Below are positions 3,197 to 48,004 of a DNA stretch of 64,000 bases, in pieces (position 1 is the first letter of the stretch; each line of letters begins with the position of its first letter). Source of the stretch: a virus (Duplodnaviria; Heunggongvirae; Uroviricota; Caudoviricetes); IMG/VR virus record IMGVR_UViG_3300002498_000057; one strand, 5' to 3'. The notes beneath the pieces are model-generated. The model worked only from the letters and a program-made list of their open reading frames with translations, had not been told where the DNA came from and ran no database searches. Made by a program: the position numbers and the translations under genes.

Positions 3197-5752
3197 ATGA
3201 TAAAAATGTAGTAGTTTTCAAAATATATATGATAGACAAATTATAAAGGACCAAACGATAATACAATATAGGACACTTGAAGAAGAATTGCAAAAACAGC
3301 AGCGTCGTTATAGAAAAATAAATAGTATTGATAGGAATAGTTTTATAATATATTATATAATTTTTAGGTTGTTCCCGGCGGTAGGATAAATGCAAACATT
3401 GGTATATAGTAGCGAAAAAATGCTAGTTTGTTTAATTGTTATGTTTATAACCCTCAAGATTTTGGAATAAAAGATATTGATAGTATATAGACAATTTTTA
3501 ATACTTTAAAGCAATCAGCAAAGATATTGGCTAGTTAGGGCGGGTTGGGTATAAATTTAAGTTGAATACGGCCCAACGGTTCATTTATACATGGTACGGG
3601 GGTAAGAACACCCGGCGTATTAAAATTTATGTAGTTGTGAGATAAGACGAGCTAGATAATAACATTAGGTAGTAATAAAAAAATTAGTGATAAATATAAG
3701 CATATATAGAAAAAAAAGATACGTAAAGGCGCGCTTATGGGTATCTTAGATATATGTCATGCAGACATTAAATAGTTTATAGTTGTAAAACAGAATGCAA
3801 ATGTTCTAACGAAATTTAATTTATCCATTATGATTTCTGATAAATTTATGCATGCCGTATAGAGTAATTAGGATTGATAGTTAAAATTTCCAGATACATA
3901 GTTTTAGAAATATAAAGAGTAGTGAGACGGTAACTTTCAAAAGTGATAGGATAATGGATATCCATTTATAGTTTTTTAGGTAGTAAAAGCAAAATAGTTA
4001 TGAGATATGATAATGATGTCAACATATAATAGAAATTAGCCAGGTGTATTATTTCTTGATACAATAAATAGATTAAACCCGGTAAGTTATTGCGAATACA
4101 TATGTTGTACAAATCCCTGTTCATAGATTCCGCAACCAAGTAATATTTGTAATTTATCAAATGTTAATTTAGTTAAATTTTTTAGTAAATAGACCGGATA
4201 GTTTTAGTTTGAAAAATTTGGAAAATACGTCGCAGTAATTGTTAGATTTTTAGATAATATATTAGACATCTCAACTATTCCAATACAATAGTATAGATAG
4301 CTTATTGAGGATAAGCGACGAATTGGAATTGGTGTCTTAGGTTAGGGCTCTCTATTATATATGATGAAAATGAGATTTGGGTCAAAATAGGCAATATAGT
4401 TTATAGATAAGTTGTTTAAATATAAATCATAGATATAGCATTTGACCTCAGCAAACCTTGGAAAATAGAAGGGGTCATTTAAGGCATTTGATAAATAGAA
4501 ATATTTTAACACATAGTATTGAAAAAGTTTGTAGATTTCCTAGAATATTAAACGTGAGATATAGAATATCGGTTATATGAGAAATTCAGTACATTCAACT
4601 TCAGCTCCAACAGGTAATACTGGAATATATGCCGGTGTAGTTTCTGGAGGAATATAGCCAGTAATAGAAAAAAGCGGTATAAGATGAGTTGTTGTTAATC
4701 AATAGTAGAAATTTAACCTATAGAAATATATCTTTCCAGATCCTCATAGGGGATAGTGATTTGAAACAAATTAGTTAAAATTTATCAAATGCGGGAATGA
4801 ATAGATATTATAGGGATATGTTGAAGATATAAAATATCGTATTGATAAAAACCGAGGAATGACAAAATAGGTTGATGTATAGGATTATGGCTGGGCGTAT
4901 GTTAAAAAGCATTATGATGATGCTTATAATAATAATTATATTGTATAGGCAAAATAGCTATCTGTATAGTAGCATATAAATATGTTAAAAGCTTCTGCTA
5001 AATATATAAATCAAAATCAATCAAAAACTGTAAATTTACCGTCGAGTTATACATTCGAAGATTTTAAAAATGTTTTCTACGATGCTTGAAAGAGTAATAT
5101 AAAGGGTATTACTACTTACCGTGATGGAACGATGGCAGCTGTTATATAGAAAAAGAAGTAGCAATAGTAGTATAAAACATAGTTATAGAGATTATTTGTA
5201 TAGTCTAACGGTAATGTTATTAAAGACTATGTTAAATTACCAAAATAGTTTGATTCAAAAACATATGTAGTTAAAGATGTAAATAATAAGAAATGGTACA
5301 TTACTTTAGGGTTTGCAGACAAAGCTTGTAAAAAACCATTTGCTATGTTTATAAGAACTAATGCACACATCGCAACAGATATAGCTAATACTACAATATA
5401 GGCAATATAGGATTTACTTAGACGCAAAGGAATTTCATAGCATTTAATTATATAGCAGCAATAGAAATATTTAAAACAAAATAATCTTGATAAAATTGCG
5501 AGAGCCATTGGAATGGCAATGAGACATAATGTTAAGATGATGGATATTGTAAGTGTATTAGAATAGTATAATGATGGATTATCTACAATACTATTTCATA
5601 TACGTAAACTATTAACTAAATTTATACCAGATGGAACTGTTGTTAATATTAATAATAATAAAGTAAAATGCATAGAGTGTGGACAATAGACAATAGTATA
5701 TTAGTCCGGGTGTAAAAATTGTAAAAGTTGTGGATGAACTGCATGTGGATAA
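3197..5752 (+). CDS. nrdJ: class II (adenosylcobalamin-type) ribonucleotide reductase NrdJ (recoded)
   Basis: Single 852-codon frame. Motifs PGGRINANIG, GGLGINLS.IRPNG...GTGVRTPGVLKFM and active-site NPCSEIP. C-terminal KGITTYRDGT and a Cys4 ribbon CIECG...CKNCKSCGWTAC with W=TGA. More than 60 in-frame TAG. Confidence 0.8.
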
Positions 5753-6045: not shown

Positions 6046-6660
6046 ATGGCAAAGAAAAAAAATGATTTAAAATAGATAAAGCAAGTAATATTATAGCAAT
6101 AGTAGTAGAGTACTTAGTAGCAAAAAGTATAGTAGTAGAAAGATAAATAGAATAATCCAGATAAAGGGTGCTTACTATTATAGCTATAGATTAAACATTG
6201 GGATAAATTATTAAAGGTATTTGTTCCAACTAAAGAAGATATATATAATGATAATACAGATGATTTTGGATATTCATAGACTCCACATATTACAATATTA
6301 TATGGATTCTTAGATAGATAGAATATTGATAAATAGAAATTACAATAGTATTTAATACCAACTGATAATATTAAACCTAAAATCACTGGTATGTCTTTAT
6401 TTGAATTATAGAAATATGATGTATTAAAATTTGATGTAGAATGTAAATAGTTAGTCAATATGAATAAGCAAATAGCTAAAAATTTCAAATATTCTAATGA
6501 CTATAGTAAATATATACCCCATATTACAATAGCATATTTATTACCTGGAACTGGAAAGAAATATGTTAAAAATATTAAATTATTTTATCCAAAAGTAAAA
6601 TAGTATATTTATAATTATAAAAATGTTGATACATAGTTAATTCCATTAAAACTAAAATAA
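6046..6660 (+). CDS. 2H phosphoesterase, LigT-like (2',3'-cyclic phosphodiesterase / 2'-5' RNA ligase family) with acidic N-terminal tail
   Basis: Two H-x-T-x motifs (TPHITILYG and IPHITIAYL) in one frame; N-terminal run of TAG (Glu) codons; TAA stop. Confidence 0.65.
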
Positions 6661-7071: not shown

Positions 7072-8979
<1,908 letters not shown>

Positions 8980-9137: not shown

Positions 9138-9422
9138 ATGGTTAGAATTACAGTAGAGTTATTACCGCATGGTAGTGAAAGTGCTAAAAGAAAAATTGCT
9201 AGTATGGATATTATCAATGATGGAACAGGTAATATTGATAATGGAAATTATAAATATAAAATATACAGTGTAGAGGCTTTAGGAATGTCAAAAGAACTTA
9301 GAAATCTTGATGTAATTAAATATAATGATGACTATAAAAATCACTTACGTAAAAAAGGTATTTGGAGCTTAATACATAATATATTTAAATCAATACCAGA
9401 TAATAGTTTAGATAGACCATAA
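9138..9422 (+). CDS. hypothetical protein
   Basis: ORF with own promoter and SD, no internal TAG/TGA, TAA stop. Confidence 0.5.
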   Translation: MVRITVELLPHGSESAKRKIASMDIINDGTGNIDNGNYKYKIYSVEALGMSKELRNLDVIKYNDDYKNHLRKKGIWSLIHNIFKSIPDNSLDRP

Positions 9423-9458
9423 AATAATTGTGATAAATCGCAAAATCATAATTATAAT
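9421..9458 (+). promoter_or_regulatory. conserved promoter motif copy 2
   Basis: TTGTGA 9428-9433, 19-nt spacer, TATAAT 9453-9458. Confidence 0.6.
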
Positions 9459-9491
9459 TAAACTATATTAAGAAAATATGAGGTTACTAAG

Positions 9492-10313
9492 ATGATTATT
9501 AAAACAGACAATTCGAATGTTATTGAAACTTTAAAGCCTTTTAGGGTTGCAGAGAAAGATATTTTTACTGATAAGTCTAAAGTAGACGGGTATAAAGCAA
9601 TTTGTTATGAACAGGATAATCGTCCAATTTGTATTGTATCAAATACCTATGGATTATTACAACACGATGAAGTAATACAGACCACTTTTGATGATTTAAA
9701 TAATATCGGGGTAAACTATGATGTTAAACAAGTTACATTAAATACTGGTTTAAAACGTAACACTATGGCAACTACTATAACACTGCCAGATCTTAAGATA
9801 AATGTTGATGGTAGTGATATTATCGGTACTATTTATATTCATAATGGAACAGACGGTATGACATCATTTACCCGTGAACTTGGATTTTATCGTAGCATTT
9901 GCCAAAATGGAATGAGAGTTCCACAACAATTACTTATATCTGAAAAGCTTAAGCATCGTAAGAATATTATAATGATGAACCTTGAAGAAGGAATTGAATC
10001 GATTACTAAGTATTTACCCAAGTTTGGAGAAATACTTGAAAAGGCACAACAAGTTAAATTAGACCAATTAAATTTAGATATTATGGCTAAAATGTTGCAT
10101 ATTGCTCCACGGGTATTTAATACTATTATATCTGGTGAATATGTTAATAAGTATAAAGATTTAATTGATGAACAAGCAGATATGAATACACTATGGGGAT
10201 TTTATCAAGTCATGACTAATTACCTTACACACTATGTCGCCAATAAATCTATTAGAACTGCTCAAGTTATGAATAGCCAGCTATATAGCTATATGCTTCA
10301 ACAAGTGGCATAA
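9492..10313 (+). CDS. hypothetical protein
   Basis: 273-aa ORF with SD GAGGT, stop-codon-free, TAA stop. Confidence 0.55.
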   Translation: MIIKTDNSNVIETLKPFRVAEKDIFTDKSKVDGYKAICYEQDNRPICIVSNTYGLLQHDEVIQTTFDDLNNIGVNYDVKQVTLNTGLKRNTMATTITLPDLKINVDGSDIIGTIYIHNGTDGMTSFTRELGFYRSICQNGMRVPQQLLISEKLKHRKNIIMMNLEEGIESITKYLPKFGEILEKAQQVKLDQLNLDIMAKMLHIAPRVFNTIISGEYVNKYKDLIDEQADMNTLWGFYQVMTNYLTHYVANKSIRTAQVMNSQLYSYMLQQVA

Positions 10314-10397: not shown

Positions 10398-11468
10398 ATG
10401 GAAAGGTCATATTATTAGATACTGGGTGTTGATAAAACAGCTAATGTAGATTAGGTTAAAAAAGCTTATCGTAAACTAGCAATGTAGCACCATCCTGATA
10501 AGAACAATAATAATAAATAGTCATAGGATAAATTTAAATAGTTAAGTGAAGCATATGAAGTATTATCAGATCAACAAAAACGGCAACAATATGATATGTT
10601 TGGAAAAGGTGGAGTTAATACATCAAATATAAATGACATGTTTGGTCATGGATTTGGTTTTGAGTCTATATTTGATTCTATATTTAACCATAGAAATCCA
10701 TTTAATAGGCAACAACATCAACAACAACGAGTTGAAAAAAGTTAGGATCTTGTAATAGAAGTGTAGATAAATTTAACTGATACAGTATAGAATATTTAGA
10801 TTATTAAATAGATATAGTATAAAGTTAAGTGTAAAAAATGCAATGGAACAAAGTCATAGGATGGTAAAACTCATAATTGTACTACCTGTAATGGAACTGG
10901 TATAATTACAAGAGTTACTAATATGGGTTCAATGGTAATGCAACAGCAAATGACTTGTAATAGTTGCAATGGAGTTGGAAATGTTATATAGACCTTGTGC
11001 AGTAGTTGTAATGGAACTGGATTTTAGTTATAGAAAAAAAATATTAATATAACTATTCCAAGGGGTATAGAGTCTAATGTAAAACTTCAACTTAAAGACA
11101 TTGGAAATATTAATAAAGATAGGCCTGGTGATATAATTGTTATAATAAATGTAATTAATAACACAATATTTACTAGAGATAATAATAATTTAATATATAT
11201 TTACCCTATACAATATTATGATTTAATTCTTGGAACTAAGTTTATTTTAAAAACTATATATGATAAATAGCTTTAGATAACTATACCATCAGGGATTAAA
11301 GAGTCAATAAGTATACCTAATTAGGGCATATATAGTATATTTGTAAACAATAGTAATACTAGGGGTATATTACAAATAAATTTATAGTGTAAAATACCAT
11401 CAAAATAGTAGATTGAACAAAATTAGATTACATTATTATAGAACATAAAGGAGATCCGAAATGGATAA
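10398..11468 (+). CDS. dnaJ: co-chaperone DnaJ (J domain + Gly/Phe region + CxxCxGxG zinc-finger repeats), recoded
   Basis: SYY.ILGV..., [14 protein letters not shown] and [20 protein letters not shown]; four CxxCxG repeats ([31 protein letters not shown]); TAG at conserved Glu of DYYEILGV. Confidence 0.8.
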
Positions 11469-15270: not shown

Positions 15271-15627
15271 TATATTATAATTAAAAACAATATAATCTTC
15301 TTTAACTATTTATATTATATTACTACTTACTAAATTTATTACCAGTACTTGAAAATATTTTTGCTTTTTCATTTTTACTCCATATATATTATTATAAACA
15401 TATTAAAAGGAATAAATCATTATGAAATATTACAAAATTTCTTAGGTCATGCAATTAACTAATTTATCTTATTATCATCTTAAAAAATGAGCTGACTAGG
15501 GACTAATATAGTAGAGTCGGCTACCCTCGGGGTATAGAGTCTATTCTTAGTAGCAGATTCAAAAAATATTTTAGTTTATAGGTGACAATAATAAAAACAT
15601 TAAGCATTGGACATTAACTAAGTAATT

Positions 15628-16986
15628 TTGAATACTATAAAACTTCCTTATATTATTGATACAAAAGAAGATATAGATTATATCATATGTCTTAGAAAGC
15701 AACAATCTAATGTCATTAGATTTTCTTATAATAGATTTAAAGATAAATTATCTTAGAAATAGATAAGATTGTTAATTAAAGATTTAAATAATATAAATAA
15801 CTTAGATAGTTGGTTTATACAATCTGCTATTAAGAAAGCATAGTATCTATATAAATCTAATCCAGATAAGAAAGTAATCTTCGGTGGTAAATCTAATTAT
15901 CTCAAGAGATTACAAAGTAAAATTACAAAAGAATAGTATAAGTAGAAAAGAATTTAGCCATTGTATGTTGTGGGATAGTCTCCAAAGAATGGTAATAGAA
16001 AGTTTAACTTAGATATTGACAATAACTGTCTAGTATTTAAACCGTATGTAAGAAGAAAAATTAAATTACAATTACCAAAATTACATAAAAATATTAAAAA
16101 ACAATTATTGTTTTTACAACAACAAGCAAAAGATAAACTTCTTGCTTATCAAATAGCTATTGATGCTGAGTTTATTTACATTTCTTTTGAATATGAAAAA
16201 CATACTATTGAATTAAATAAGAGTATTTACATGGGAATCGATTTGAATCCCCAATTTATTGGGTATTCAATAATCAAGGGTAGTAAAGTAATATATTCTA
16301 AAACTTATGATATTGGATAGATAATTACTAGAGTAAAATAGACTAAAGAATAGTCTTCATCCAAAACTAATAAATATTTAAATAATAAATTTAACCATGA
16401 AACTATTTAGATTTCTAAAGACATAATAAACAATTGTTTAAAATACAAAGTATCTAATATATTTATGTAGTCCTTAGATTTTACTAAATCATTTAAGTTT
16501 AAATACAAAGGTTTAAATAGATTGTGTCAAAACCTTTGAAAAAGAAATAAGTTTACAAGCAATATTCAAAAAAGATGCAATTCCTATGGCGTCAAGTTAT
16601 CATTTATCAATGGTGCATATAGCTCTACTATAGGAAATATAAAGTATAATTTATTCGATCCATGCAATTCAGCTATTTAGATAGCAAGACGTGGATACGA
16701 GTGTTATACTAAAAGACAAAAGAAATTTTATCCAAATTTAGTAGTTAAAAAAGAATTTAAAGATCAATGGAAGAAATATTTAAATTCTAAGACTATTGAG
16801 TTAGATAGCGTTTCAAATGAAGATTTATTTAAAAATACCTGGAAAGATCTTCATAATTACCTAAAAAATTCTAAAGTGAAATATAGAGTTTCTTTAAGTG
16901 AGTGTGACTTATTTAAAGTTTTTAGATTAAAGAATAAAAGAAGTATGGTAAAATTATATAGTTTTACTTAGTCTTTTATACTTTAA
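15628..16986 (+). CDS. tnpB: IS200/IS605-family TnpB (RuvC-like, zinc finger), recoded; probable TTG start
   Basis: RuvC-I MGIDLN, RuvC-II IFMESLD and RuvC-III FDPCNSAIEIARRGY; TGA inside NLWKRNK; many TAG; left-end hairpin at 15500-15540. Confidence 0.7.
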
Positions 16987-17325: not shown

Positions 17326-17397
17326 GGAGTTATCGTTTAATGGCTAGGACCGCAGATTCTAAACCTGCAGATCGGGGTTCGATCCCCCGTAACTCTA
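17326..17397 (+). tRNA. amber-decoding tRNA(CUA) with Glu/Gln-type body (probable tRNA-Glu(CUA))
   Basis: Acceptor GGAGTTA/TAACTCT, D-stem GTTT/GGAC (U11-A24, U13-G22), anticodon loop TTCTAAA (CUA), 4-nt variable loop AGAT with A46, T-loop TTCGATC, CCA encoded. Confidence 0.85.
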
Positions 17398-17605
17398 CCA
17401 GATTCATAACCTATTTTTATGTGGGTTGGGTAGCTAAGGAGTATTAAAGAGGTAATATTACTTTAATAAAAACCACTTAAGGGATAATTAATATTTTTAG
17501 TGTAGCAGGTCAATTTCTAAAAATATTGAGTTATTCAAAATCTCCTAAATGAATCTTTTATTTACCTCAGGTATCACAATGGTTAGTGAGTCTGAGCTTA
17601 TTTAT

Positions 17606-17867: not shown

Positions 17868-17941
17868 GCCCAAGTAACTCAGTTGGTAGTAGTGATTGTG
17901 TTACATGCAATAAGTCATAGGTTCGAATCCTATTTTGGGCA
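17868..17941 (+). tRNA. tRNA-Val(UAC)-like with poorly paired D-stem
   Basis: Acceptor GCCCAAG/TTTGGGC, anticodon stem ATTGT/GCAAT, loop GTTACAT, T-arm ATAGG-TTCGAAT-CCTAT, CCA encoded; D-stem ACTC/GTAG does not pair. Confidence 0.5.
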
Positions 17942-17949
17942 CCAGTATT

Positions 17950-18112
17950 TAAAAATAATAGTTACTACGTATTAGGGACAACTAATCCTAATCAAATTAG
18001 ATCCCTATATCAAGAGTATTTAGCTAATATTTACTTGATACTACTGTCGTCAGAGACGTTAAGACTGATTAATCGGGTGTAGTAACTATTATTTTTTAAT
18101 AAGTGTATAGAG
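17950..18112 (+). ncRNA. long perfect hairpin RNA candidate sharing the AATAATAG motif of the Y-RNA-like units
   Basis: AAAAATAATAGTTACTAC ... GTAGTAACTATTATTTTTT 18-bp inverted repeat enclosing ~110 nt with three internal hairpins. Confidence 0.3.
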
Positions 18113-18127: not shown

Positions 18128-18484
18128 GGGGATGAAATGGATTCGACATAGTGAATAGGATAGAGAAACGAGTAGAGAATGATTGTGATACTCTCAAAAC
18201 TCAATTAAAGTTAAAATAGTTAACGACAACTTACTACAAGCTGCTTAATTGCAGACTATCATAACTGAGGTTCTCTGATTTGTAGATTATGATAGTAAGA
18301 CCATAATCAGACTTATCCAATAAGATAGTCTTAGTAATTGGATATAGTATACAAGGCATTACATAATTTAGGTTTGCACAATTGTCCTTCTTATGTGATT
18401 ATTAAACAATTATGCTATACTCGTAAGTGATTTCTTGAAAGTAAGCATTATGGACCCGAGTATCGAAACTCGGCATCTCCACCA
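18128..18484 (+). ncRNA. ssrA: tmRNA (SsrA)
   Basis: 5' GGGGATGAAATGGATTCGAC and tRNA-like 3' end GGACCCGAG-TATCGAAA-CTCGG-CATCTCC-A-CCA; internal tag frame (V)NDNLLQAA-TAA. Confidence 0.8.
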
Positions 18485-18708: not shown

Positions 18709-18779
18709 AGACTTTTAGTGAAATGGTATCACGAAGGAATTTGGATCCTTAGTTATAGGTTCGAATCCTATATGGTCTG
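18709..18779 (+). tRNA. tRNA-Gln(UUG)
   Basis: D-stem GTGA/TCAC, anticodon stem AAGGA/TCCTT, loop ATTTGGA, 4-nt variable loop, discriminator G, CCA encoded. Confidence 0.8.
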
Positions 18780-18822
18780 CCAATATATAAAACCAATAAG
18801 TATATAGGGTGTAAATTTTTAT

Positions 18823-19762: not shown

Positions 19763-19897
19763 CGTGGTGTAGATAATAGTTACTTCGTTCGTTAAACGAC
19801 TGGTTGGTGGTTCAAGTCCATCCATGATGACATTAACATCATGTAGCTCAATTGGCAGAGCAGTACAGAACTATTGTTGCTTGTTCCCGTTATTTTT
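19763..19897 (+). ncRNA. Y-RNA-like unit A (YrlA-like: terminal stem + permuted tRNA-like module)
   Basis: 5' GATAATAGTTAC pairs with 3' GAACTATTGTTGC. Internal T-arm GGTGG-TTCAAGT-CCATCC, closed acceptor-like hairpin CATGATG-ACATTAA-CATCATG and D-arm GCTC-AATTGGCA-GAGC. U-rich 3' tail. Confidence 0.55.
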
Positions 19898-20030: not shown

Positions 20031-20174
20031 TAGTGTAGTGTAAATAATAGCTACTTCGATAATAACCCGTTGGTCAGTGGTTCGAATCCATTCGTGAGGT
20101 AATTCTCTCGTAGCTCAGCTGGTAGAGCAATGGGCACAGATAAAACTATTATTAATTGTTCTCACTAATTTTAA
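20031..20174 (+). ncRNA. Y-RNA-like unit C (YrlA-like)
   Basis: 5' AAATAATAGCTAC pairs with 3' ACTATTATT; internal T-arm CAGTGG-TTCGAAT-CCATTCG and D-arm GCTC-AGCTGGTA-GAGC; same 3' tail motif as unit B. Confidence 0.55.
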
Positions 20175-20929: not shown

Positions 20930-20962
20930 AAAAATTACTACTAATCTTAAAAGGAGATTGCT

Positions 20963-22330
20963 ATGTCGAAAGTTAATGTAAAGGTTGCTTATCCAAATCC
21001 TAAAACACATGGAGATGGTATTGCGTCAAAACTTACTAAGTTAGAAGAACTTCGTAGAAGTGTATTATCTAATATGCTTTGGGAAAATGAATTTTATGAA
21101 GACGGCGAAAGTATTGCAACTAGAATAACCAATTTAGCGAATACTGTTGATCCTAACAAGGTAGCTGATTTGGCTATTGAAGCAAGAGAACAAATGAAGT
21201 TAAGACATGTACCATTATTGTTATGTCGTATTCTTGCAAAAAGAGGTTATAAGGTAGCAAATACTTTAGCTAGAGTTATTCAAAGACCAGATGAACTTAC
21301 TGAATTTTTAGCTATTTATTGGAAAAATGGCAAAGAACCTTTATCAGCTCAAGTTAAGAAAGGACTAGCGTTAGCATTTACAAAATTTGATGAATATCAA
21401 TTAGCTAAATATAATAGAGATGAAAATATTAAATTAAAAGATGTATTATTTTTATCCCATGCAAAACCCCTTACTGATGACCAAGCAAATGTCTGGAAAA
21501 GATTAATTGATGGTACCATAGAAACTCCAGACACCTGGGAAGTAGCATTATCAACTGGTAAGGATAAGAAAGAAACTTTTGAAAGACTTATTACTTCAAA
21601 AAAATTAGGCGCATTAGCGTTAATACGTAACTTAAGAAAGATGGAAGAATCAAAAGTTGACAATAATATTATAAAACAAGCATTACTAGATATGAAAGTT
21701 GATAGAGTATTACCATTTAGATTCATTGCGGCAGCAAAACATGCTCCAAGATTTGAGCAGGATCTTGAACAAGCAATGTTTAAGTGTCTTAGTAATGGTA
21801 CTAAGTTACCTGGTAAAACTATTTTAATAATAGATATTTCTGGTAGTATGCATGGTCAATTATCATCTAAATCTGAAATGAGTAGATATGATGCTGCTAA
21901 TTCATTAGCTATTCTAGTAAGGGAAATGTGTGAAAATCCCGTAATATATGCTACAGCTGGAAATGACGGTAGAAGAATTCATGCAACAGCTTTAGTTCCA
22001 AACAGACGTGGATTTGCATTGCCAGACGCTATTATGAACATGAATAGTACTCTTGGTGGTGGTGGAATATTCTTAAAGCAAGTAATGGATTATGTATATG
22101 ATAAAGAGCATGATGCAGATAGAATTATAATTATTACAGATGAACAAGATTGTGATAATAGTAACGTAAATGCACCTGCAAATGCTAATGCCTTTGGGAA
22201 ACAAAATTATATTATAAATATTGCTTCATATAATAGAGGTATAGCATATAATAAAAAATGGATCCATATTAGTGGATGGTCAGAAGCGGTATTAAATTAT
22301 ATAGCACAATATGAGTTAATGGGTAATTAA
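20963..22330 (+). CDS. rsr: Ro60 ortholog (TROVE domain + C-terminal vWA/MIDAS), Rsr-like
   Basis: N-terminal LTKLEELRRSVLSNMLWENEFYEDG (TROVE); C-terminal ILIIDISGSMHG MIDAS motif; SD AAGGAG; no TAG/TGA. Confidence 0.8.
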   Translation: MSKVNVKVAYPNPKTHGDGIASKLTKLEELRRSVLSNMLWENEFYEDGESIATRITNLANTVDPNKVADLAIEAREQMKLRHVPLLLCRILAKRGYKVANTLARVIQRPDELTEFLAIYWKNGKEPLSAQVKKGLALAFTKFDEYQLAKYNRDENIKLKDVLFLSHAKPLTDDQANVWKRLIDGTIETPDTWEVALSTGKDKKETFERLITSKKLGALALIRNLRKMEESKVDNNIIKQALLDMKVDRVLPFRFIAAAKHAPRFEQDLEQAMFKCLSNGTKLPGKTILIIDISGSMHGQLSSKSEMSRYDAANSLAILVREMCENPVIYATAGNDGRRIHATALVPNRRGFALPDAIMNMNSTLGGGGIFLKQVMDYVYDKEHDADRIIIITDEQDCDNSNVNAPANANAFGKQNYIINIASYNRGIAYNKKWIHISGWSEAVLNYIAQYELMGN

Positions 22331-22331
22331 A

Positions 22332-22550
22332 ATGGGTGAGTATAACTTCCTTGATGATTATGATTCATGGGCAGACTATGTATATGCAATGATAGATAAT
22401 GAAGGTTTTGATTATTGCTTTGTAAATTATTCTAATTTTGATAATGTTGAAGATGAAAAATTTCATAAACTTAGAAAGAAATATTTAAAAGTTCAAAAAG
22501 AACTTAATGATTATATTGAACAAAATTTAAGTGAACTGGATAGTATTTAA
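22332..22550 (+). CDS. hypothetical acidic small protein
   Basis: ORF directly after rsr (stop/start TAAAATG overlap region). Confidence 0.4.
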   Translation: MGEYNFLDDYDSWADYVYAMIDNEGFDYCFVNYSNFDNVEDEKFHKLRKKYLKVQKELNDYIEQNLSELDSI

Positions 22551-25011: not shown

Positions 25012-25191
25012 TATATATTATATCCATAAGGACATTACCAAAGATCTAGTAGTGTAGCCTATATGAATGCGTAGGATAGGTGGGAGTTGATGATACTGGT
25101 TAGCCGAAACGGTGGGCTAAGAAATTCGCCAGAGCCAGAGTAGACGTTGTTGAAATACCACCCTTTCGTATAATGGATATAATTTTTTCAA

Positions 25192-25529: not shown

Positions 25530-25656
25530 ATAACCATAGCTCAATGGAGAGCCCTAGACGGATAATCTAGGTGACACTTAATGGGTGAGTTTGGAGATAT
25601 CACGTGTAATGCTCCAGTAAATCTCATTTGTGTTGGTTCAAGTCCAACTGGTTATA
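25530..25656 (+). tRNA. tRNA-Ile(GAU)-like with G33 and a ~64-nt structured insertion in the variable region
   Basis: Acceptor ATAACCA/TGGTTAT, D-arm GCTC-AATGGA-GAGC, anticodon stem CTAGA/TCTAG, loop CGGATAA, T-arm GTTGG-TTCAAGT-CCAAC. Confidence 0.45.
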
Positions 25657-25919: not shown

Positions 25920-25993
25920 AAGGGTGTCGGTTAATGGTTGACCAACAGTCTCCAAAACTGTATTTAATGCAGGTTCGACTCCTGTTCTGGGTA
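25920..25993 (+). tRNA. tRNA-Trp(CCA)-like, probable pseudogene/chimera (acceptor stem cannot pair)
   Basis: D-arm GGTT-AATGGTT-GACC, anticodon stem ACAGT/ACTGT, loop CTCCAAA. 3' 30 nt GCAGGTTCGACTCCTGTTCTGGGTACCA identical to the 3' end of the 23436 tRNA, but the 5' strand AAGGGTG is not complementary. Confidence 0.45.
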
Positions 25994-27802: not shown

Positions 27803-28405
27803 ATGAAAGCAAAAGAAGTATTACAAATATTAAGAATTACAAGACCGACATTAACAAAATATGTTAGATAGGGTTGAATTAAAGTTTAGTAGTTGCCAAG
27901 TAAAAGATACATATATAATGATGAATCTGTTTATAAATTAATGAATAACAATATAGATAGAAAAACTGTAATATACGGAAGAGTTTCAACTAAATCACAG
28001 AAAAAAGATTTATAGAATCAAATGTAGTTATTAAAGCAATATTGCTTTAATAATGGATACCAGATAAATGCGGTATATTCTGATATTGCATCTGGTATTG
28101 ACTTTTCAAATAGAGTATAGTTTTTTAATTTATTAGATTAGATTATTAGTGGTAAGATAAAAAAAGTTATAATTACATATAAAGATAGGTTAAGTAGAAT
28201 TGGATTTTCATTTTTTGAAAAATTTTTTAAAAAATATGATTGTAAGATATAGGTAATTTCTTAGTTAAATAATCATAAATTATAGAGTTAGTAGATATTT
28301 GAATAGATAATAAGTTTAATTCATTGTTTTTCAATGAAAATATATAGTAAAAGAAAATCTAATAATACTATTATAATAAGTACTAATAGTTAGGATATAA
28401 AATAA
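27803..28405 (+). CDS. tnpA: IS607-type serine recombinase TnpA (recoded)
   Basis: N-terminal MerR-like HTH MKAKEVLQILRITRPTLTKYVR; catalytic YGRVSTKSQKKDL; VIITYKDRLSRIGFSFFEKF; SD AAGGAG. Confidence 0.75.
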
Positions 28406-28459
28406 CTCTTGATTAAAACATAGATTATTCAATGTAAATTTAATTTTTAGATAGATAAT

Positions 28460-29623
28460 ATGTTATTTATATCTAAGAATTTATACAATTATGCTAATTA
28501 TATAATTAGGCAGTAGTTTATAAATAATAGAAAATGAATAAGATATAATTAGTTATACCGTCTAGTTAAATAGAACTAGAATTATAAAATATTACCAGCT
28601 CAGACTAGCCAACAAGTTTTAAAGTTATTAGATAAAAATTGAAAATCATTTTTTACTGCTATTAAATTATGAAGTAAAAATAAATCAAGCTTTACTGGTA
28701 AACCAAGTCTACCAAAATATAAGAAAAAAGATGGAAAAAATATTTTAATATATCCTTTTCAAAATATTTCTATAGACAAAGAAACAAATTAGATTAAAAT
28801 ACCAAAAACAAAGTATAAAATTAAAATATCTAATAGGTTGTTATCTTAGACTATTAAATTTAAATAGTTAAGAATAATACCAACAAATGTTGGATTTAAA
28901 TGTTAGATAATATATAATGATAATCAAGATTTTCAAAAACAAGAAGATAATAATAGATATTGTAGTATAGATTTAGGATTAAGTAACTTTTCTACATTAG
29001 TAAATAATTTCGGAACATTACCACCAATAATTATAAATGGAAAAACAATTAAATCCTTTAATCGATATTATAATAAAAAGTTATCTAAATTACAGTCTAA
29101 ACTTTCATAGGAAAATAAATTTGTGTCAAAAAGAACACAGAGGTTAACTCAAAAAAGAGGTAATAAAATTAAAGATTCACTTCATAAAATTTCAAAATAC
29201 ATTCAAAATTATTGTGTAGATTTAGATGTATCAAGAGTAATAATGGGATACAATAAACAATGAAAAACAGATATTAATCTTGGTAAAAAGATAAATCAAA
29301 AATTTGTACAAGTTCCATATAATACTTTTTTAAATATGTTAAAGTATAAATTATATGATATTGGAATAATTTTAGAAATTACAGAAGAATCTTATACAAG
29401 TAAATGTTCTTTCTTAGATAAAGAAAAAATATGTAAACATACGTAGTATCAAGGAAGTAGAATTAAACGCGGTATATTTAAAACAAAATAGAACAAATAT
29501 ATAAATGCTGATGTTAATGGTAGTTATAACATCATAAGAAAAGTAATCGGTGATGATATTTATAATAATATCCAATCGATATAGGGATTGGTGTTAAACC
29601 CAGTTAGACTAAATATAGTTTAA
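28460..29623 (+). CDS. tnpB: IS607-type TnpB (recoded)
   Basis: LPAQTSQQVLKLLDKNWKSFF (W=TGA), SIDLGLSNFSTL (RuvC-I), IMGYNKQWKTDINLGKKINQKFVQVPY (W=TGA), EESYTSKCSF, INADVNGSYNIIRK. Confidence 0.75.
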
Positions 29624-40142: not shown

Positions 40143-40391
40143 ATGGGTAGACCCAAGGGTGCTCCAAACAAGCAAAAACAAAGTAAACAGACAAAATTAA
40201 CCTATAATACAATATCAGTATAGTTATTATTATAGTCTGTTAACTTAACTAAATAGATATTAGTAGTAGTTAGATAGATATTATAGTATTTATAGAGAAC
40301 TAATATTACTTAGTATAATAGATTAGTATAGAAATTACAACCTAGCTTAACTAAATTAAAAGAATTTAATAAGGTGATAACCAATGTATAA
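40143..40391 (+). CDS. hypothetical small basic protein (recoded)
   Basis: MGRPKGAPNKQKQSKQ; TAG-containing frame to TAA at 40389. Confidence 0.3.
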
Positions 40392-41691
40392 TAATTATAT
40401 TTATCAATTATAGAATGAAACGAATCAATAGTACAAATTTAGATTATTGAATGGAAAATAGATTGGATAGTATTAGATAACTTGACCATAGATTAAATAG
40501 TTATTAAAAGATCCAAGAGATGTTAGAGCAATAAAACGTGATTGAGATGGATATAAATTTGTAGTATAGTATTAGTTATAGAATAATAATAATGATAGTA
40601 TAAATAAATAGTTAGTAACTTTATCAAGACAAAAACAGAGATTTGCTGATGTAAATAGAATTTAGCGCCAAAAAGTTAGATAGATGAGTAGAGTTATAAA
40701 TACTATATAGTAGTATAGTAATTCTTTAAAATAGGTATTTGCACACTATGATATGACTTAGTTTATTGGTAATAATGATAGTCATATATTTACATAGAAT
40801 AATGTTGGAATTATACACTTAACTGACTTACATTTTAATGAAATAGTTACATAGGTTTTAGATAACTAGTATAATTTTAAAATTGCCGCAAAAAGATTAT
40901 CTAAATTTATTAGTAAGAGTAAATAGTATTTTAAATTAAATAATGTTGATACAGTATTGATTGCAATGACTGGTGATTTAATAAACTCAGATCGACGATT
41001 AGAATAGTTATTATCTCAATCTACAAATAGAAGTAAGGCTACTTTCTTAGCTGTAAATATCATAAATAATATTATAATTTAGTTATCTTATTAGTTTAAT
41101 AGTATTTATATCTCATGTGTATCTGGTAATTAGAGTAGATTAAGTAAGGAAGTTGGATGGACATAGATGATGGCTTCTGATAATTATGACTTTACTATAT
41201 TTAATATTTTAAAATATTTATATAGAAATAGTAAAAATATAATATTTACTGCTGGTGATTATTATTAGCATATTGTCACTATTGGTTCTAATAGAGATGA
41301 TATTAATATTTTATTATTACATGGAAACGTAAATAAATTAGCTGGTAATGTATAGTATGGTGTTCAGCAAATAATGGGTAAATATAGTTCTAGAAATATT
41401 CATATACACTTTATGTTATTTGGTCATTATCATTCATGTAGAATAGGAGATAATTTTGCAAGAGGTGGATCACTATCAGGAGCAAATGGGTATAGTGATA
41501 AGTGTTTGCAAATGACAACTAGAGCTAGTCAAAATATTCATATTATAAATAGATAGAATGGGTAGGTTGATTCAATTAAGATTGATTTGCAAAATACTGA
41601 TGGATATTAGGGATATTTAATTGATTAGACATTATATAATGAATTACTGCACACTAGTGAATGGAATAAATAGCATAAGATAATAATTTAA
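40384..41691 (+). CDS. calcineurin-like metallophosphoesterase (recoded)
   Basis: Motifs IIHLTDLHFN, MTGDLINSD, LLLHGNVN and FGHYHSCRIGDNFARGG in one frame with many TAG; contains the ORF-track fragment 41374-41556. Confidence 0.6.
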
Positions 41692-42597: not shown

Positions 42598-42852
42598 ATG
42601 TTATATAAATATACTTGCCCAACATGTAATACAATATTAAAAAATAATCGCGTTGATTTACTTATTATAAAAACAATGAATCATAGTTGTAATTTAAAAA
42701 ACAAATTAAAACTATATGAAAATTACATAGCAGATGTATTTAAGTACACCCCTGAGGAAATAGGAAATTATACGTGTAAGCTTTGTAATTATTGCACAGA
42801 TGAAGTAGAGCTGGCTATTAGACATGCAAAGGAAAATCACGTAGAGGAATAA
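42598..42852 (+). CDS. hypothetical zinc-finger protein
   Basis: CPTCN...CNL...CKLCNYC; SD GGAGAT. Confidence 0.45.
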   Translation: MLYKYTCPTCNTILKNNRVDLLIIKTMNHSCNLKNKLKLYENYIADVFKYTPEEIGNYTCKLCNYCTDEVELAIRHAKENHVEE

Positions 42853-42855
42853 ATA

Positions 42856-43881
42856 ATGAAAATATTATACAAGATTAAAGCTGGTTCATATTTATATGGA
42901 CTAACCACACCTACCTCAGATATAGATTATGTTGGGGTATACTTAGAAGATACATTTAGTGAACATATGGATATTTTTAATTCTAAAGATGAAATTGATC
43001 TTTCAGTAATATCTAAATTAAATAATGGTAAAAATAGTGAAGATGCAATAGATGAAAAATACTATAGTCTTAAAAAATTTTTAAAGTTGTGTAGTGATTG
43101 TAACCCAAATATTATAGAGCTCTTATATGCGCCGGCCGATTGTATTGAATATGTAGATACTATATTTAAATCTCAAATTCTTGACCATCCAGAATTATTT
43201 ATAAATATAAAATTAGTTGATAGATTTATTGGATATGCAAAAAGTCAAGAGCAAAAAAGTTATACTAAGTCTGAAAACTATATAATACTAGATAAATTAA
43301 AACAGGGTATATTAAAAGTATTAAAGCATTCTAGTTATTGGGTTTTAAATGAATTGTCCCCCGCTAGAGATTTATTTAGCCGACAATCATTTATGGCACC
43401 GTTTCCAGAATTTGATAACATTACTATTACTCCAATTACAATTAATCATACTGCTACTAATATTGAGACAATATATGAAATAGGTGATATGAAATTTTCA
43501 TCTGGATTACATCTTAAAAATGTTATTTTACAAATTGAAGATAGGTTTAAACGAGCTTCACATAGAGTAGATGGAATATTAATTAATAAATACGAACCAA
43601 AGTTTTTATCACATACAGTACGGTTGTTAGATGAAGGCTGTCAATTATTAACTAAAAAACGTATAGATTTTCCATTTACTGAACAATCACTAGCAGACAT
43701 TATGAATATTAAATTGGGGTTAACGGCAGTTCAAGATATTCCAAATATTGTCAATAAATATAAAGATACTTTAACAGAATTAGAGAAACTTGATAACAAT
43801 ATTCCAGACAAACCAGATTATATTTGTATAAATAAAGCATATTTAACTTTAATAAGAGGTATTTACAATGAAAATATTTAA
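42856..43881 (+). CDS. Pol-beta superfamily nucleotidyltransferase
   Basis: GSYLYGLTTPTSDIDYVGVY matches G[SG]-x9-13-DxD of minimal NTases and CD-NTases; 341 aa. Confidence 0.55.
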   Translation: MKILYKIKAGSYLYGLTTPTSDIDYVGVYLEDTFSEHMDIFNSKDEIDLSVISKLNNGKNSEDAIDEKYYSLKKFLKLCSDCNPNIIELLYAPADCIEYVDTIFKSQILDHPELFINIKLVDRFIGYAKSQEQKSYTKSENYIILDKLKQGILKVLKHSSYWVLNELSPARDLFSRQSFMAPFPEFDNITITPITINHTATNIETIYEIGDMKFSSGLHLKNVILQIEDRFKRASHRVDGILINKYEPKFLSHTVRLLDEGCQLLTKKRIDFPFTEQSLADIMNIKLGLTAVQDIPNIVNKYKDTLTELEKLDNNIPDKPDYICINKAYLTLIRGIYNENI

Positions 43882-44129
43882 GATGGTTGGTAAAATAATA
43901 TTGATTGTATGGCTAATTATAACAGCAATTTGTCTTATACCGGGTGCAATTTGTTTTGGTATTTTGATTTTACTTGAATCTATATTTAAGGTAAATACGA
44001 AAATAATGAAACATCGTAACGTCAGTTAAATAATTGTAATAAACCATAAATAGACAAGTATAATTTAAGTAAAGGAGATATAAAATGAAGTTTATTAAAT
44101 ACAATGAAATTGAAAACTCTACAAACAAA

Positions 44130-45134
44130 ATGATTTATGAATTTAAACAATCAACATTGTATAATCCAACTGATATTTGAGTTGTAACCATCAAAATTCA
44201 TGGAAGCAATTTCCAAATTATAAGAGCCGACGATGGACAATTGGTGCCAGCTAAAAGAACTAATACTCTGGAAATGACATCTTCTTTCTTTAACTTTCAA
44301 TCAATATTTGATAGATATGATTATAACAAATTAATGAATAATATCTTAGAATTTGCAAAAATACACTATCCAGATTTTTTGGGTGGAATAAGTATTCATG
44401 GAGAGCTTTGTGGTGGTCATTATCCTGGAGCAGAAGTAGTACCAAATGCAAAAAAGGTTCAAAAAGAAGTAGCATACTCAAATAATACAGAATTAATAGT
44501 ATTTGATATACGACTAACCTCGACTGATAATGATGATTACTATATATTTATTCCGCATTATCAAATAATTAAGCTTTGCAACGATTGTAATATCCCAGTA
44601 GTTCCTATTATATTTGAAGGTACTTTAGATGAATGTTTAAAGTGGTCTAGCGAACATAATGCTGACCCCTGTGAAATATGGAAAATATTTGGTATGGATC
44701 ATGAAGTAGAAAATAACATTCGTGAGGGTCATGTTATTAAACCGGCTATTAAGACAATATTTAAGGGCCAACATCGTATGATATTTAAAGATAAGAATGA
44801 TAAATTTAAAGAAAATAAAGGTAGCAAAGAAAAAAATGCAGTACCAAAAATTACTTACAGCGATAATATGATTTATATCTTAGACAATATTGATACTATG
44901 ATTTGCATTAATAGGTTTAATTCTGTTACTTCAAAATTTGGTGAATATAGTATTAAAGATTTTAGACTATTAATGTTATTTATGATTGAAGATATTTATG
45001 ATGAACTTAATAGATCTATAGATTTAAAAGAATTATTTGATACTTTAACTAATGTTGAAAAGAAAGAATTGAATGATATTTTGAATAAAAAGATTGCTAG
45101 TTTTATGGGCGCAAATAAAAAAGAATTATTTTAA
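44130..45134 (+). CDS. Rnl2-family RNA ligase (start uncertain; one in-frame TGA=Trp at 44178)
   Basis: DIWVVTIKIHGSNFQ aligns to T4 Rnl2 GEWVAREKIHGTNFS (motif I KxHG, W from TGA); motif IV EGHVIKP; motif V KIFKDKNDKF. Confidence 0.7.
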
Positions 45135-45606: not shown

Positions 45607-45885
45607 ATGGAATTTAGTATTAATCAGTTTGTCGTAAGTGAACAAGATGGTATTTATCAAGATTTATCCAAATTAGATAATAATAAATCTCAAATTGTAT
45701 CATTTTATTTAATAGACTTTGCAACTAAAGATTATAAAATATTATTTATATGCCATAAAATAAATGAAAACAACGGGTGTATTCAAAATATTGAATATTT
45801 TGGCAATAAAGTAATTGATCTTAAGACTAATGAATGTGTAGAACAATTACCAATGACCCTAAAAATAATTATATACAATAAATAA
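45607..45885 (+). CDS. hypothetical protein
   Basis: ORF with SD AAGGAAAT. Confidence 0.4.
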   Translation: MEFSINQFVVSEQDGIYQDLSKLDNNKSQIVSFYLIDFATKDYKILFICHKINENNGCIQNIEYFGNKVIDLKTNECVEQLPMTLKIIIYNK

Positions 45886-45896
45886 GGAGATATACA

Positions 45897-46091
45897 ATGA
45901 GTGATAACCAACAAATATCTGGTAGTGGAATAGGGTGTGCAACACTGCTATTTTTTATATTTTTAGTATTAAAGTTGACTAATGTAATTACTTGGTCTTG
46001 GTGGTGGATATTTGCACCATTATGGGGGACGGCACTACTAGTTATTATTTGTTTAATAGTAATATATCTATTTTTGAAAAAGTATCAATAA
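45897..46091 (+). CDS. hypothetical small membrane protein
   Basis: SD AAGGAGAT; two TM segments. Confidence 0.35.
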   Translation: MSDNQQISGSGIGCATLLFFIFLVLKLTNVITWSWWWIFAPLWGTALLVIICLIVIYLFLKKYQ

Positions 46092-46819
46092 TGTTAGATA
46101 CATCTATTAAAATTGTAGTATTGACTGGCTCTGGAATAAGTGTAGAGTCTGGTTTATCTACATTTAGAGGCCTGGGTGGTATTTGGGATAAATATGATCC
46201 AAATAAAGTTTGTTCTTTATCTGGATTTATCCATGATCCAATAACGGCATGGAAATTTAATTCAGAACTATATCTACAATATGCAATTGCAAAATCAAAC
46301 ATTGGTCATAAATCATTAGTTAAATTACAATATTATTTATATAACGGCAAACTTACTATCATTACTCAGAATATAGATGGATTGCACCAAGCCGCTGGTA
46401 GTGAAAATTGTATTGAAATGCATGGTAATATTCATAGAACCAGATGTAATGGCTGTAACTATATCACAAACACAAATAGTATTGTATGTAAATTTATGAG
46501 TAATAGTACTACACCAATATGTCCAATTTGTGGAGATTTACTAAGGCCTGATGTTGTAATGTTTGAAGAAATTCCAAAATATAAACAAGCTATAGATATG
46601 GATATTTTAAATTGTGATTATTTTATTCAGATTGGAACTAGTGGTAAAGTTAGACCAGCTAGTACTCTTATTTATATAGCAGAAAGTATTGGAGCTAAAT
46701 CAATAATATTAAATAAAGAAAAACCTGATAACATTACAGAAAATAGTCAATTTTATCAATGTAATAGTGGTAATGATATTGATAAATATATCCAATTACT
46801 TATCAATGGAGAGATATAA
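46092..46819 (+). CDS. Sir2-family NAD-dependent deacylase (sirtuin)
   Basis: VVLTGSGISVESGLSTFRG, TQNIDGLHQAAGS, HGNIHRTRCNGCNY...CPICG, LRPDVVMFEE. Confidence 0.75.
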
Positions 46820-47022
46820 ATGAAAAAATATATAACGAAATCAATAGTAATAAAGAAGAAATAGTTAATTGATTTACTTAAATAGAAGTATATTTTACCT
46901 AATAAAATAAATATTGAATATGATATTGATTCAGATGGATCATATGACTAGGGCACATATACTGAATGGGTAAAGTCTATTACTATTTCTTGGAATGAAA
47001 CTTTAATTTAAAAACATGGAGT

Positions 47023-47232: not shown

Positions 47233-47377
47233 TATTTACTTAAACATCCAACTAAGAACTTATCACAAAAACAAAAAGATAAATTAATTTAGTCAATACA
47301 AACTGCTAAATTAGAGGCAGAGTTTAAAAGAAAATGTTTTGGTGATCAAGGCAATCCAGAATATTTTGGACACAATT

Positions 47378-47987: not shown

Positions 47988-48004
47988 ATAAAAGGAAAAA
48001 CAAA

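Follow-up and report, generated by a model that had tools for sequence, protein, structure and literature searches.

Bacterial one-piece transfer-messenger RNA (tmRNA; SsrA, 10Sa RNA) is the closest described counterpart of the gene reported here, which lies at 18128-18484 in a 64,000-nucleotide (nt) stretch of tailed phage DNA (the window; IMG/VR record IMGVR_UViG_3300002498_000057). The two have in common a tRNA-like domain, the G3:U70 pair, the ACCA end, a D-loop analogue, the P2 helix and pseudoknot 1 (PK1) ahead of the tag, as well as a short tag ending in Ala-Ala-stop, a stop codon in the loop of helix 5 and structured regions downstream where PK2-PK4 would lie. The window tmRNA differs in being phage-borne and AU-rich, in its 18-nt T-arm, in having no adjacent smpB, in a resume codon that is GUU or AAC and not the usual GCN or GGN, and in a tag ending in QAA instead of LAA.

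Phage tmRNAs are already known. They have been reported in 402 of 18,146 isolate phage genomes (2.3%) (PMC9004378) and, together with SmpB, in huge phages (PMC7162821), while two pattern scans of IMG/VR made here returned 18 full-length Rfam tmRNA matches; a first-pass annotation of the window, made from its letters alone, had called such genes rare in phages, which overstates the case. As with the tmRNAs of huge, jumbo and other phages, actinobacteriophages among them (PMC7162821, PMC9004378, PMC13191466), the gene is found in a large genome with many tRNAs and translation genes, and the role proposed for those RNAs, the upkeep of a hijacked translation machinery, could apply here too. These surveys used ARAGORN, which at default settings misses two Rfam-positive tmRNAs, that of the window and that of its relative L165 (17940-18296), and published ARAGORN-based surveys therefore probably undercount divergent AU-rich phage tmRNAs. 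In the phage tmRNA literature compared, no link was found between a phage tmRNA and a stop-reassigned genome or a module of aminoacyl-tRNA synthetase and suppressor tRNA.

Complete phage-encoded tmRNAs are also found in low-G+C phages, namely the Methylophilales phage Melnitz and pelagimyophages (PMC9004378). The Melnitz tmRNA has a presumed early role in sustaining translation or tagging host proteins, as could be imagined for the window gene. It is, however, two-piece, circularly permuted and coupled to a glutamine riboswitch, whereas the window tmRNA is one-piece and gave no riboswitch match. With regard to the altered code, the nearest described system is the 'code-change module' of the Jade phages (bioRxiv 10.1101/2021.08.26.457843), in which a suppressor tRNA, a tryptophanyl-tRNA synthetase (TrpRS) and release factor RF1 are standard-coded within TGA-recoded genomes. 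In both, a recoded phage encodes a suppressor tRNA along with a standard-coded aminoacyl-tRNA synthetase. The window phage differs from Jade in that its enzyme is a glutamyl-tRNA synthetase (GluRS) with a divergent anticodon-binding region, TAG becoming Glu and TGA in addition Trp, and in its clade the third translation component nearby is the tmRNA and not a release factor.

What is new is the setting, in which a conserved tmRNA belongs to a clade whose code is apparently undescribed and which has a GluRS of its own. Taken alone the tmRNA is a minor addition; the setting matters in that the gene is intact across deeply diverged TAG-recoded phages, and it offers a testable way into the question of how stop-recoded phages, which impose a foreign code on a cell that uses the standard one, manage to terminate translation and to rescue ribosomes. 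The apparently undescribed code (TAG as Glu, TGA as Trp, TAA as sole stop), with its dedicated GluRS, is also relevant to the evolution of the genetic code and to orthogonal translation engineering.

The gene itself is as follows:

18128 to 18484, + strand: one-piece ssrA-like tmRNA gene, 357 nt, 34% G+C; RF00023, with homologues in the related phages L164, L165 and L162

The Rfam tmRNA model RF00023 covers it end to end (model positions 1-374 of 374) with a score of 94.7 bits against a gathering score of 47 (E-value 1.3e-35 over the 64-kb window), which bears out both the identity and the boundaries put forward in the first-pass annotation. The 5′ motif (GGGGATGAAATGGATTCGAC, 18128-18147), the 3′ end (CATCTCCACCA, 18474-18484) and the tag frame quoted there were all read at those places. 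By its sequence the gene is a phage-encoded one-piece tmRNA, with most defining features of the family present and a canonical T-loop absent. The permuted two-piece models (RF04321, RF01849-51) gave no match at the locus, the order of parts being the standard one-piece order. The gene had also been placed within a tRNA cluster, and it does sit between tRNA-Val (17868-17944) and tRNA-Gln (18709-18782), enclosed by an array of 28 tRNAs called by ARAGORN, all on the same strand. A scan for promoters and terminators around it gave nothing exceeding shuffled expectation, and INPHARED gave no match either by blastn with the tmRNA as query or by megablast with positions 1-25000 of the window.

ARAGORN, which the first-pass annotation had suggested as a check, made no call at 18128-18484 with default settings. 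With the threshold lowered to 80% (-ps80) it returned the same boundaries and a different tag, ADYHN-TGA. The latter tag was rejected, as it lies downstream of the conserved tag, has no homology to the tag of any relative and ends in TGA, which is read as Trp in the window phage.

Seven relatives with a variant GluRS were examined (L159, L162, L164, L165, L166, L167 and L168). Counting the window phage, homologous tmRNAs occur in four of the eight variant-GluRS lineages, the other three being L162 (64 bits), L164 (98 bits) and L165 (78 bits), where the gene lies 5.5-6.6 kb downstream of that for GluRS; a tRNA with anticodon CUA, tRNA(CUA), is situated between the two in L162 and L165. The L166 contig ends too early for a tmRNA to be assessed. 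The window tmRNA is 55-61% identical to these three homologues, and the GluRS proteins across the tmRNA-bearing lineages are about 50% identical, indicating deep divergence. Two other routes to relatives were abandoned: TROVE/Ro60 led to 19 viral loci of 33-65% G+C, none with a tmRNA, the gene being mobile, and DnaK led to seven viral loci that were all standard-code, without tRNAs and not syntenic.

When the structure derived from the window was laid on an alignment of the four tmRNAs, 80.6% of cells were paired as against 35-45% in slid controls, in which the 3′ partners were moved by 1-3 columns; the percentage is inflated, as one of the aligned sequences itself supplied the structure. Compensatory changes were present in 33 pairs (3-12 in the slid controls), and the observed pairing measures were not attained in any of 500 shuffles. 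The compensatory changes in L164, L165 and L162 are independent evidence for the structure. As judged from the aligned sequences, the tmRNA has been passed down within a clade of TAG-recoded phages, where selection has preserved its structure.

The tRNA-like domain and the long helix that joins it to the rest of the molecule are made up of the following elements:

18128 to 18134, + strand: 5′ strand of the acceptor stem, GGGGAUG, pairing with 18474-18480 and including G3:U70
18474 to 18484, + strand: 3′ strand of the acceptor stem, CAUCUCC, with the discriminator A and an encoded CCA (direct reading and Rfam alignment)
18139 to 18147, + strand: D-loop analogue GGAUUCGAC (Rfam alignment posterior '*'), conserved in a 9-sequence group
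18456 to 18473, + strand: T-arm CCGAG-U-AUCGAA-A-CUCGG, 18 nt and not 17, with a 1-nt insertion in the Rfam alignment
18148 to 18174, + strand: 5′ strands of P2 (P2a 18148-18153, P2b 18164-18168, P2c 18169-18174)
18446 to 18451, 18431 to 18435 and 18418 to 18423, + strand: 3′ partners of P2a, P2b and P2c respectively; the helix appears in the minimum free energy (MFE) fold

The acceptor stem has 7 bp, all of them paired in each of the four sequences, with the G:U at position 3 invariant and a compensatory change at position 5. The G3:U70 pair, the discriminator A and the CCA are the alanine identity elements common to tRNA-Ala and tmRNA. The motif GGAUUCGAC answers to the D-loop analogue of the family, GGAUUCGA. 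Within P2, P2b is 100% paired and P2a includes four compensatory pairs, while P2c is weak and backed by part of the set. The unconstrained MFE fold (z = -2.45) recovers the acceptor stem, the T-arm, the long P2 and the stop-codon hairpin without input from any model.

The T-arm, which can also be written CCGAG UAUCGAAA CUCGG, has an inserted base relative to the canonical loop UUCGAUA of L164, and the canonical arrangement of a 5-bp stem and a 7-nt T-loop (UUCGANN) is absent from the window tmRNA. Its stem is 96% paired with five compensatory pairs. In L165 the arm reads CCGAG-C-AUCGAU-G-CUCGG, a compensatory change from U:A to C:G, and the 18 nt probably form a 6-bp stem with a 6-nt loop. Since this form is common to L165, with that compensatory change, it is inherited and not the result of damage or of an assembly error.

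A separate group of phage tmRNAs with an 8-nt T-loop (AGUCGRWG) was met on contigs of up to 444 kb (L002 7110-7455, L008 1957-2314, L038-L042 and L045-L054). An '8-nt T-loop phage tmRNA lineage' that would include the window tmRNA was considered and dropped; the true relatives are L164, L165 and L162, and the extra base is a separate insertion. When 185,579 genomes of bacteria and archaea were scanned for the 8-nt form, no clearly bacterial contig had a match. With the acceptor constrained there were no hits, and without this constraint two of 95 hits were structured, both on small phage-like contigs of metagenome-assembled genomes that resemble mis-binned phage DNA, namely L098, which also has a tRNA(CUA), and L151, assigned to an archaeal bin. 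In five viral contigs (L038-L042) GOLLD RNA genes lie within a few hundred bases of the tmRNA, for example at 2518-2925 in L038, 6857-7268 in L039 and 1132-1539 in L040, with scores of 267-319 bits and 198 bits for a truncated copy.

The body of the molecule contains the pseudoknot regions and helix 5:

18174 to 18207, + strand: PK1, with stem S1 18174-18177:18191-18194 (AGAG:CUCU) and stem S2 18180-18185:18202-18207 (UGAUUG:CAAUUA)
18241 to 18254, + strand: helix 5 hairpin CUGC/GCAG, the loop UUAAUU holding the UAA stop at 18246-18248 (MFE fold)
18255 to 18311, + strand: PK2, with S1 18255-18264:18287-18296 and S2 18274-18280:18305-18311
18315 to 18343, + strand: hairpin of the PK3 region, AUCCAAU:AUUGGAU with inner AAGA:UCUU, 71% paired with four compensatory pairs
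18358 to 18399, + strand: stem of the PK4 region, AUUACAUAA:UUAUGUGAU, 72% paired with six compensatory pairs

Both S1 of PK1 and helix 5 are 100% paired in the four sequences; a stop codon in the loop of helix 5 is also a feature of the E. coli tmRNA. In the MAFFT alignment S2 of PK1 is out of register and only 50% paired, and it was hence read directly. Read in this way it covaries, being UGAUUG:CAAUUA in the window, UUGAAU:AUUCAA in L164, UUGAGU:ACUCAA in L165 and UUGAAC:GUUCAA in L162, and it covaries across the 9-sequence group as well. In PK2, S2 is 96% paired and S1 78% paired, each with four compensatory pairs. For PK3 and PK4 the alignment backs one stem each. The helices from PK2 to PK4 rest on comparative data; in this AU-rich sequence taken by itself the best H-type pseudoknot (10 + 7 bp) was equalled or exceeded in length in 63 of 300 dinucleotide shuffles and is thus not above chance.

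The tag frame runs from just after PK1 into helix 5, and the four tags compare as follows:

18219 to 18248, + strand: tag reading frame GUU AAC GAC AAC UUA CUA CAA GCU GCU UAA, giving (V)NDNLLQAA-stop (Rfam tag-region alignment)
Window: (V)NDNLLQAA, stop TAA
L165: GNENLLAA, stop TGA
L164: GETHKQAA, stop TGA
L162: GETQLKAA, stop TAA

The frame had been read as (V)NDNLLQAA ending in TAA from the start, and this reading is supported both by the Rfam alignment and by homology to L165, whose tag (GGC AAC GAA AAC UUA CUA GCU GCA UGA) matches codon for codon over AAC GAx AAC TTA CTA. Neither TAG nor TGA occurs in frame. The first residue is uncertain, as the parentheses of the first-pass annotation had implied, since translation could resume at GUU (18219) or at AAC (18222), both in the same frame. 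GUU aligns with the resume codon GGC of L165 and obeys the usual G-first pattern. In favour of AAC, the heptamer directly before it, AAUAGUU, is the upstream motif of the phage tmRNAs of L002 and L005; the E. coli counterpart, AAUAGUC, is nearly the same. The resume point is set by positions -6 to +1 (PMC3985003). The spacing between PK1 and the resume codon was dropped as an arbiter: counted to GUU it is 11 nt in the window tmRNA, within the 10-11 nt of the L008 group, but the closest relatives have 18-19 nt.

None of the four lineages, all of which read TAG as sense, ends its tag with TAG. The two closest relatives, L165 and L164, which use TGA as a stop, end theirs with TGA, while the window phage, where TGA is read as Trp, ends its tag with TAA. 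Tags that end with TAG do occur in several standard-code phage tmRNAs (L002, L005 group). The pattern is suggestive of a tag frame that has followed the genetic code, as is to be expected of a translated tag, though it amounts to a single evolutionary event and is not statistical. The residue at position -3 of the tag is polar in three of the lineages (Q in the window and L164, K in L162), L165 ending in LLAA, and the tags of L008-type phage tmRNAs also end in AQAA.

The phage genome is about 257 kb (contig of 256,585 bp, ENA ERZ27315036 k141_100919), and the window has a G+C content of 27.6%. Under the standard code, open reading frames (ORFs) of 100 codons or more account for 33% of the window; the share grows to 65% when TAG is taken as sense and to 79% when TAA is left as the sole stop. 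The ribonucleotide reductase (RNR) gene (3197-5752, 852 codons) has 74 TAG and 14 TGA codons in frame, and many in-frame stops are typical of the long + strand ORFs, with genes that have none interspersed among them. Further examples of the altered code are at 159-1550, 10398-11468 and 40384-41691. RNR was aligned with 90 homologues with X placed at TAG and TGA codons. The majority residue at the 74 TAG columns is Glu in 42, Asp in 10, Lys in 9 and Gln in 2, and among well-conserved TAG columns it is Glu in 19 of 25. The mean composition of the TAG columns (E 0.39, D 0.12, K 0.11, Q 0.06) is nearly equal to that of the GAA/GAG columns (E 0.39, D 0.14, K 0.08, Q 0.07) and unlike that of the CAA/CAG columns (Q 0.20, E 0.09). 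At the TGA columns Trp is found in 13 of 14, with a mean W of 0.83. In DnaK (7072-8979) the TAG codons fall on the conserved Glu of the motifs NAEG, FEV, GIET and QGER. Codon usage fits the same assignments, as GAA/GAG are depleted in TAG-rich genes, where CAA/CAG are not, and TGG is depleted in TGA-rich genes.

From these sequence comparisons TAG is assigned to Glu and TGA to Trp in the window phage, with TAA as the only stop. The redefinition of two stop codons had been part of the first-pass annotation and is upheld by ORF coverage, RNR columns and codon usage, TAG being assigned to Glu and not Gln; in published recoded (code-15) phages TAG is Gln. No description of TAG as Glu, or of dual stop reassignment in phages, was found in the searchable literature. 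The tRNA set of the window includes the anticodons CUA and UCA and lacks UUC (Glu) and CCA (Trp):

17326 to 17400, + strand: suppressor tRNA with anticodon CUA (reads UAG), 0.7 kb upstream of the tmRNA; ARAGORN, Rfam tRNA 51.5 bits
14060 to 14134, + strand: suppressor tRNA with anticodon UCA (reads UGA); ARAGORN, Rfam tRNA 43 bits

Attempts to assign the identity of the two suppressor tRNAs by overall similarity were uninformative against the collected tRNAs, and comparison of tRNA(CUA) with E. coli references was ambiguous, the window tRNA being closer to Gln and that of L162 closer to Glu. A tRNA-model match of 127 nt at 25530-25656 (+ strand, 46 bits) may contain an insertion or intron, and there is a partial tRNA match at 25929-25985 (+ strand). 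The intron mode of ARAGORN gave doubtful assignments for these two, none of them tRNA-Glu(UUC) or tRNA-Trp(CCA).

All eight variant-GluRS lineages, the window phage and the seven relatives, have the TAG recoding. In the relatives the standard code gives an ORF coverage of 0.26-0.59, and taking TAG as sense lifts this to 0.81-0.89. Doing so for TGA as well adds just 0.02-0.09, so all seven still have TGA as a stop. In a small sample, the best-conserved sites tested in the relatives have TAG opposite Glu, and in no case was it opposite Gln. A tRNA(CUA) is present in the flank of four of the seven (L162, L165, L166 and L167). In the window phage the synthetase gene lies just beyond the end of the window:

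L157 11114 to 12460, equivalent to 64238 to 65584 in window numbering and 240 bp past the window end, + strand: bacterial-type GluRS of 448 aa, TIGR00464

This protein matches NCBIfam TIGR00464 with 348 bits (cutoff 290) and the GlnRS model with 33 bits. As its gene contains no TAG or TGA, it would be translatable in a standard-code cell. The profile match spans positions 2-372 of 470 and alignments to solved GluRS structures end near residue 320, so the anticodon-binding region is divergent. Such divergence would fit the need to accept a CUA anticodon, and the variant GluRS probably charges tRNA(CUA) with Glu. A database search returned about 30 homologues, 42-58% identical, which, two short fragments apart, align with 96% or more of the query. 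These variants have a Pfam match to the catalytic domain only and lack PF19269, which almost all of the ordinary bacterial GluRS listed possess, the latter matching about 69% of the query.

Genes free of TAG and TGA lie scattered among genes that use TAG as their main Glu codon. The stretches without either codon (9138-10313, 20963-22550, 42598-45134, 45607-48796, 49795-51548 and 60281-61891) belong to a set that includes TROVE/Ro60, RlaP, Rnl2, Sir2, SPFH, RtcB, Rnl1, DUF932 and GluRS, while the recoded set includes RNR, DnaB, DnaJ and EF-Ts. In the published model of recoding it is late and lysis genes that are recoded, whereas in the window phage replication and chaperone genes are recoded too. 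An IS607-like pair (serine resolvase and TnpB/OrfB_IS605) at 27803-29623 (+ strand) is written with in-frame TAG and TGA, as are further TnpB-like ORFs at 15622-16986 and at L157 13772-14530, which implies that these elements are adapted or confined to the phage code.

The most probable role, in our view, is that of a functional one-piece tmRNA which relieves non-stop complexes in a TAG-recoded phage, some of which may arise from the suppressor tRNAs of the phage itself. The RNA would probably be co-transcribed with the surrounding tRNA array and then processed. Host alanyl-tRNA synthetase (AlaRS) would be expected from the identity rules to charge it with alanine by way of the G3:U70 acceptor stem, and its partner SmpB would come from the host or be encoded elsewhere in the phage genome. 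SmpB and EF-Tu would then deliver it to stalled ribosomes whose A site is empty and whose mRNA offers no usable stop; the ribosome would be moved to the tag frame, A(V)NDNLLQAA added and translation terminated at UAA. The likeliest benefit would be that ribosome recycling is kept up as non-stop complexes surge in infection. An extra source of such complexes may be the two suppressor tRNAs, which could read through host UAG and UGA stops and bring ribosomes to mRNA 3′ ends. According to the summary of Ueda (2002) given in PMC3985003, nonsense suppressor tRNAs do cause stop readthrough and non-stop complexes that tmRNA resolves, and where a stop codon, UAG included, has no release factor to read it, tmRNA acts as well (PMC6207430). 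With two of the three stops read as sense in the cell, the demand for rescue should therefore rise, and a causal link between the tmRNA and the recoding is plausible.

Several points weigh against this role. The T-arm is non-canonical at 18 nt, and a tag that ends in QAA, and not in hydrophobic LAA or VAA, may as a result be a weak degron. No SmpB (PF01668) was found among the 85 window ORFs or in the 10 kb past the window end, and no tmRNA was found in the sequence available for L159, L167 and L168. Around other sampled phage tmRNAs the standard code gives an ORF coverage of 55-90%, and of 73-90% at most of these loci. Moreover the four tmRNA lineages are related, and the co-occurrence with code machinery may reflect shared ancestry only.

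A stronger proposal, that the tmRNA is a vertically inherited part of a code-switching toolkit of a jumbo-phage clade, along with the variant GluRS, tRNA(CUA) and here also tRNA(UCA), is tentative and we consider it somewhat doubtful. Were it true, the tmRNA would clear ribosome jams that result from the code switch, through host-stop readthrough and weakened termination, and trans-translation would be a required accessory of natural stop-codon reassignment. A real possibility, if not the one we would put first, is that the tmRNA is retained for reasons that large phages share and that have nothing to do with the altered code, such as rescue after phage-induced decay of host mRNA or after RNA-cleaving defence, as one item of a general translation and RNA-repair toolkit. 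Its neighbours RtcB, Rnl1, Rnl2, RlaP, Ro60, the 2H/Acb1-like protein and Apyc1 would suit such a role, as would the tmRNAs of standard-code loci, those reported for huge phages generally (PMC7162821) and the three recoded relatives in which the region examined has none. The repeated presence of the tmRNA near variant GluRS and tRNA(CUA) in three diverged lineages, and a tag stop that follows the code, speak for a tie to the recoding, and neither of these counterpoints excludes a generic role. The first-pass annotation had itself suggested that the tmRNA rescues ribosomes stalling at in-frame TAG and TGA of the phage when suppressor tRNAs are limiting. These codons are certainly very dense, with 74 TAG and 14 TGA in the 852 codons of RNR, and tmRNA can act at UAG when no release factor recognises it (PMC6207430). 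However, RF1 and RF2 would terminate at unsuppressed stops unless the phage removes their activity, no release-factor gene or inhibitor of release factors was found in the window, and tagging would destroy the nascent proteins of the phage to no obvious benefit, all of which makes this mechanism unlikely.

The unusual end of the tag could also mean that ribosomes are rescued without degradation of the ClpXP type, or that host proteins are redirected for amino-acid recycling. This idea draws on the Q, Q and K at position -3 in the window, L164 and L162, on the AQAA of L008-type tags and on the recycling by selective tagging proposed for phage Melnitz (PMC9004378). The reading is purely sequence-based, L165 has an ordinary hydrophobic residue and the terminal AA-COOH is kept in every case, so that we give it little credence. 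In the E. coli ssrA tag, that AA-COOH is what proteases chiefly recognise. It is very improbable that the tmRNA is decaying or has been repurposed without trans-translation, for example as a decoy for tRNA-targeting nucleases. Its covariance model score of 94.7 bits does compare with 115-148 bits for many phage tmRNAs, its T-arm is non-canonical, ARAGORN misses it and PK2-PK4 are not above chance in the single sequence; against this, compensatory changes are found in all parts of the body, PK2, PK3, PK4 and the T-stem among them, an intact tag frame has its AA-stop inside the loop of helix 5 and a stop that matches the code, and the odd T-arm is itself conserved in L165 with a compensatory change. 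Temperate elements often integrate at ssrA and carry off a 3′ fragment (discussed in PMC9004378), and a chimeric assembly or an attP remnant of such an event could in principle be imagined. It is hardly credible for a full-length gene with a paired 5′ end and a composition drifted towards that of the phage (34% G+C in a genome of 27.6%), with phage tRNAs of the same strand on both sides and syntenic homologues in related phage contigs; in addition, no bona fide chromosomal match to this form of T-arm came out of two pattern scans of the 185,579 bacterial and archaeal genomes. No tyrosine integrase adjoins the gene, the nearest recombinase being the IS607-like serine recombinase at 27803-28405.

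The remainder of the window has genes of the jumbo-phage type, namely DnaB-like helicase, RNR, DnaK and DnaJ, together with a number involved in translation and RNA repair, these being EF-Ts, RtcB, two RNA ligases (Rnl1-type and Rnl2), RlaP and TROVE/Ro60. Apyc1 (anti-Pycsar), an Acb1-like 2H phosphoesterase, Sir2 and SPFH are also encoded. The repair and anti-defence genes are located as follows:

42856 to 45134, 49795 to 51018, 60821 to 61891, 6046 to 6660 and 55324 to 56181: RNA-repair and anti-defence genes (RlaP, Rnl2, RtcB, Rnl1-type, 2H/Acb1-like, Apyc1)

So dense a set suggests that the phage expects RNA-targeting host defences, which would be a generic source of non-stop ribosomes.

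Other possible RNA elements were noted around the tRNA arrays. The space that separates tRNA-Val from the tmRNA holds an element of about 150 nt (17951-18097, + strand) with three internal hairpins (MFE z = -3.35), closed by a perfect 18-bp terminal stem (AAAAAUAAUAGUUACUAC / GUAGUAACUAUUAUUUUU), which matches no Rfam family. A match to positions 2127-2214 of the bacterial 23S rRNA model (36.5 bits, E-value 7e-8) lies inside the second tRNA cluster at 25060-25172 (+ strand). Directly upstream of the TROVE/Ro60 gene (20951-22330) there are two sub-threshold matches to YrlA (Y RNA-like), one at 20044-20158 (+ strand, 37.1 bits, E-value 6e-5) over the full model and one at 19799-19864 (+ strand, 33.4 bits), and the arrangement suggests a putative phage module of Ro60 and Y RNA beside the tRNA/tmRNA array.

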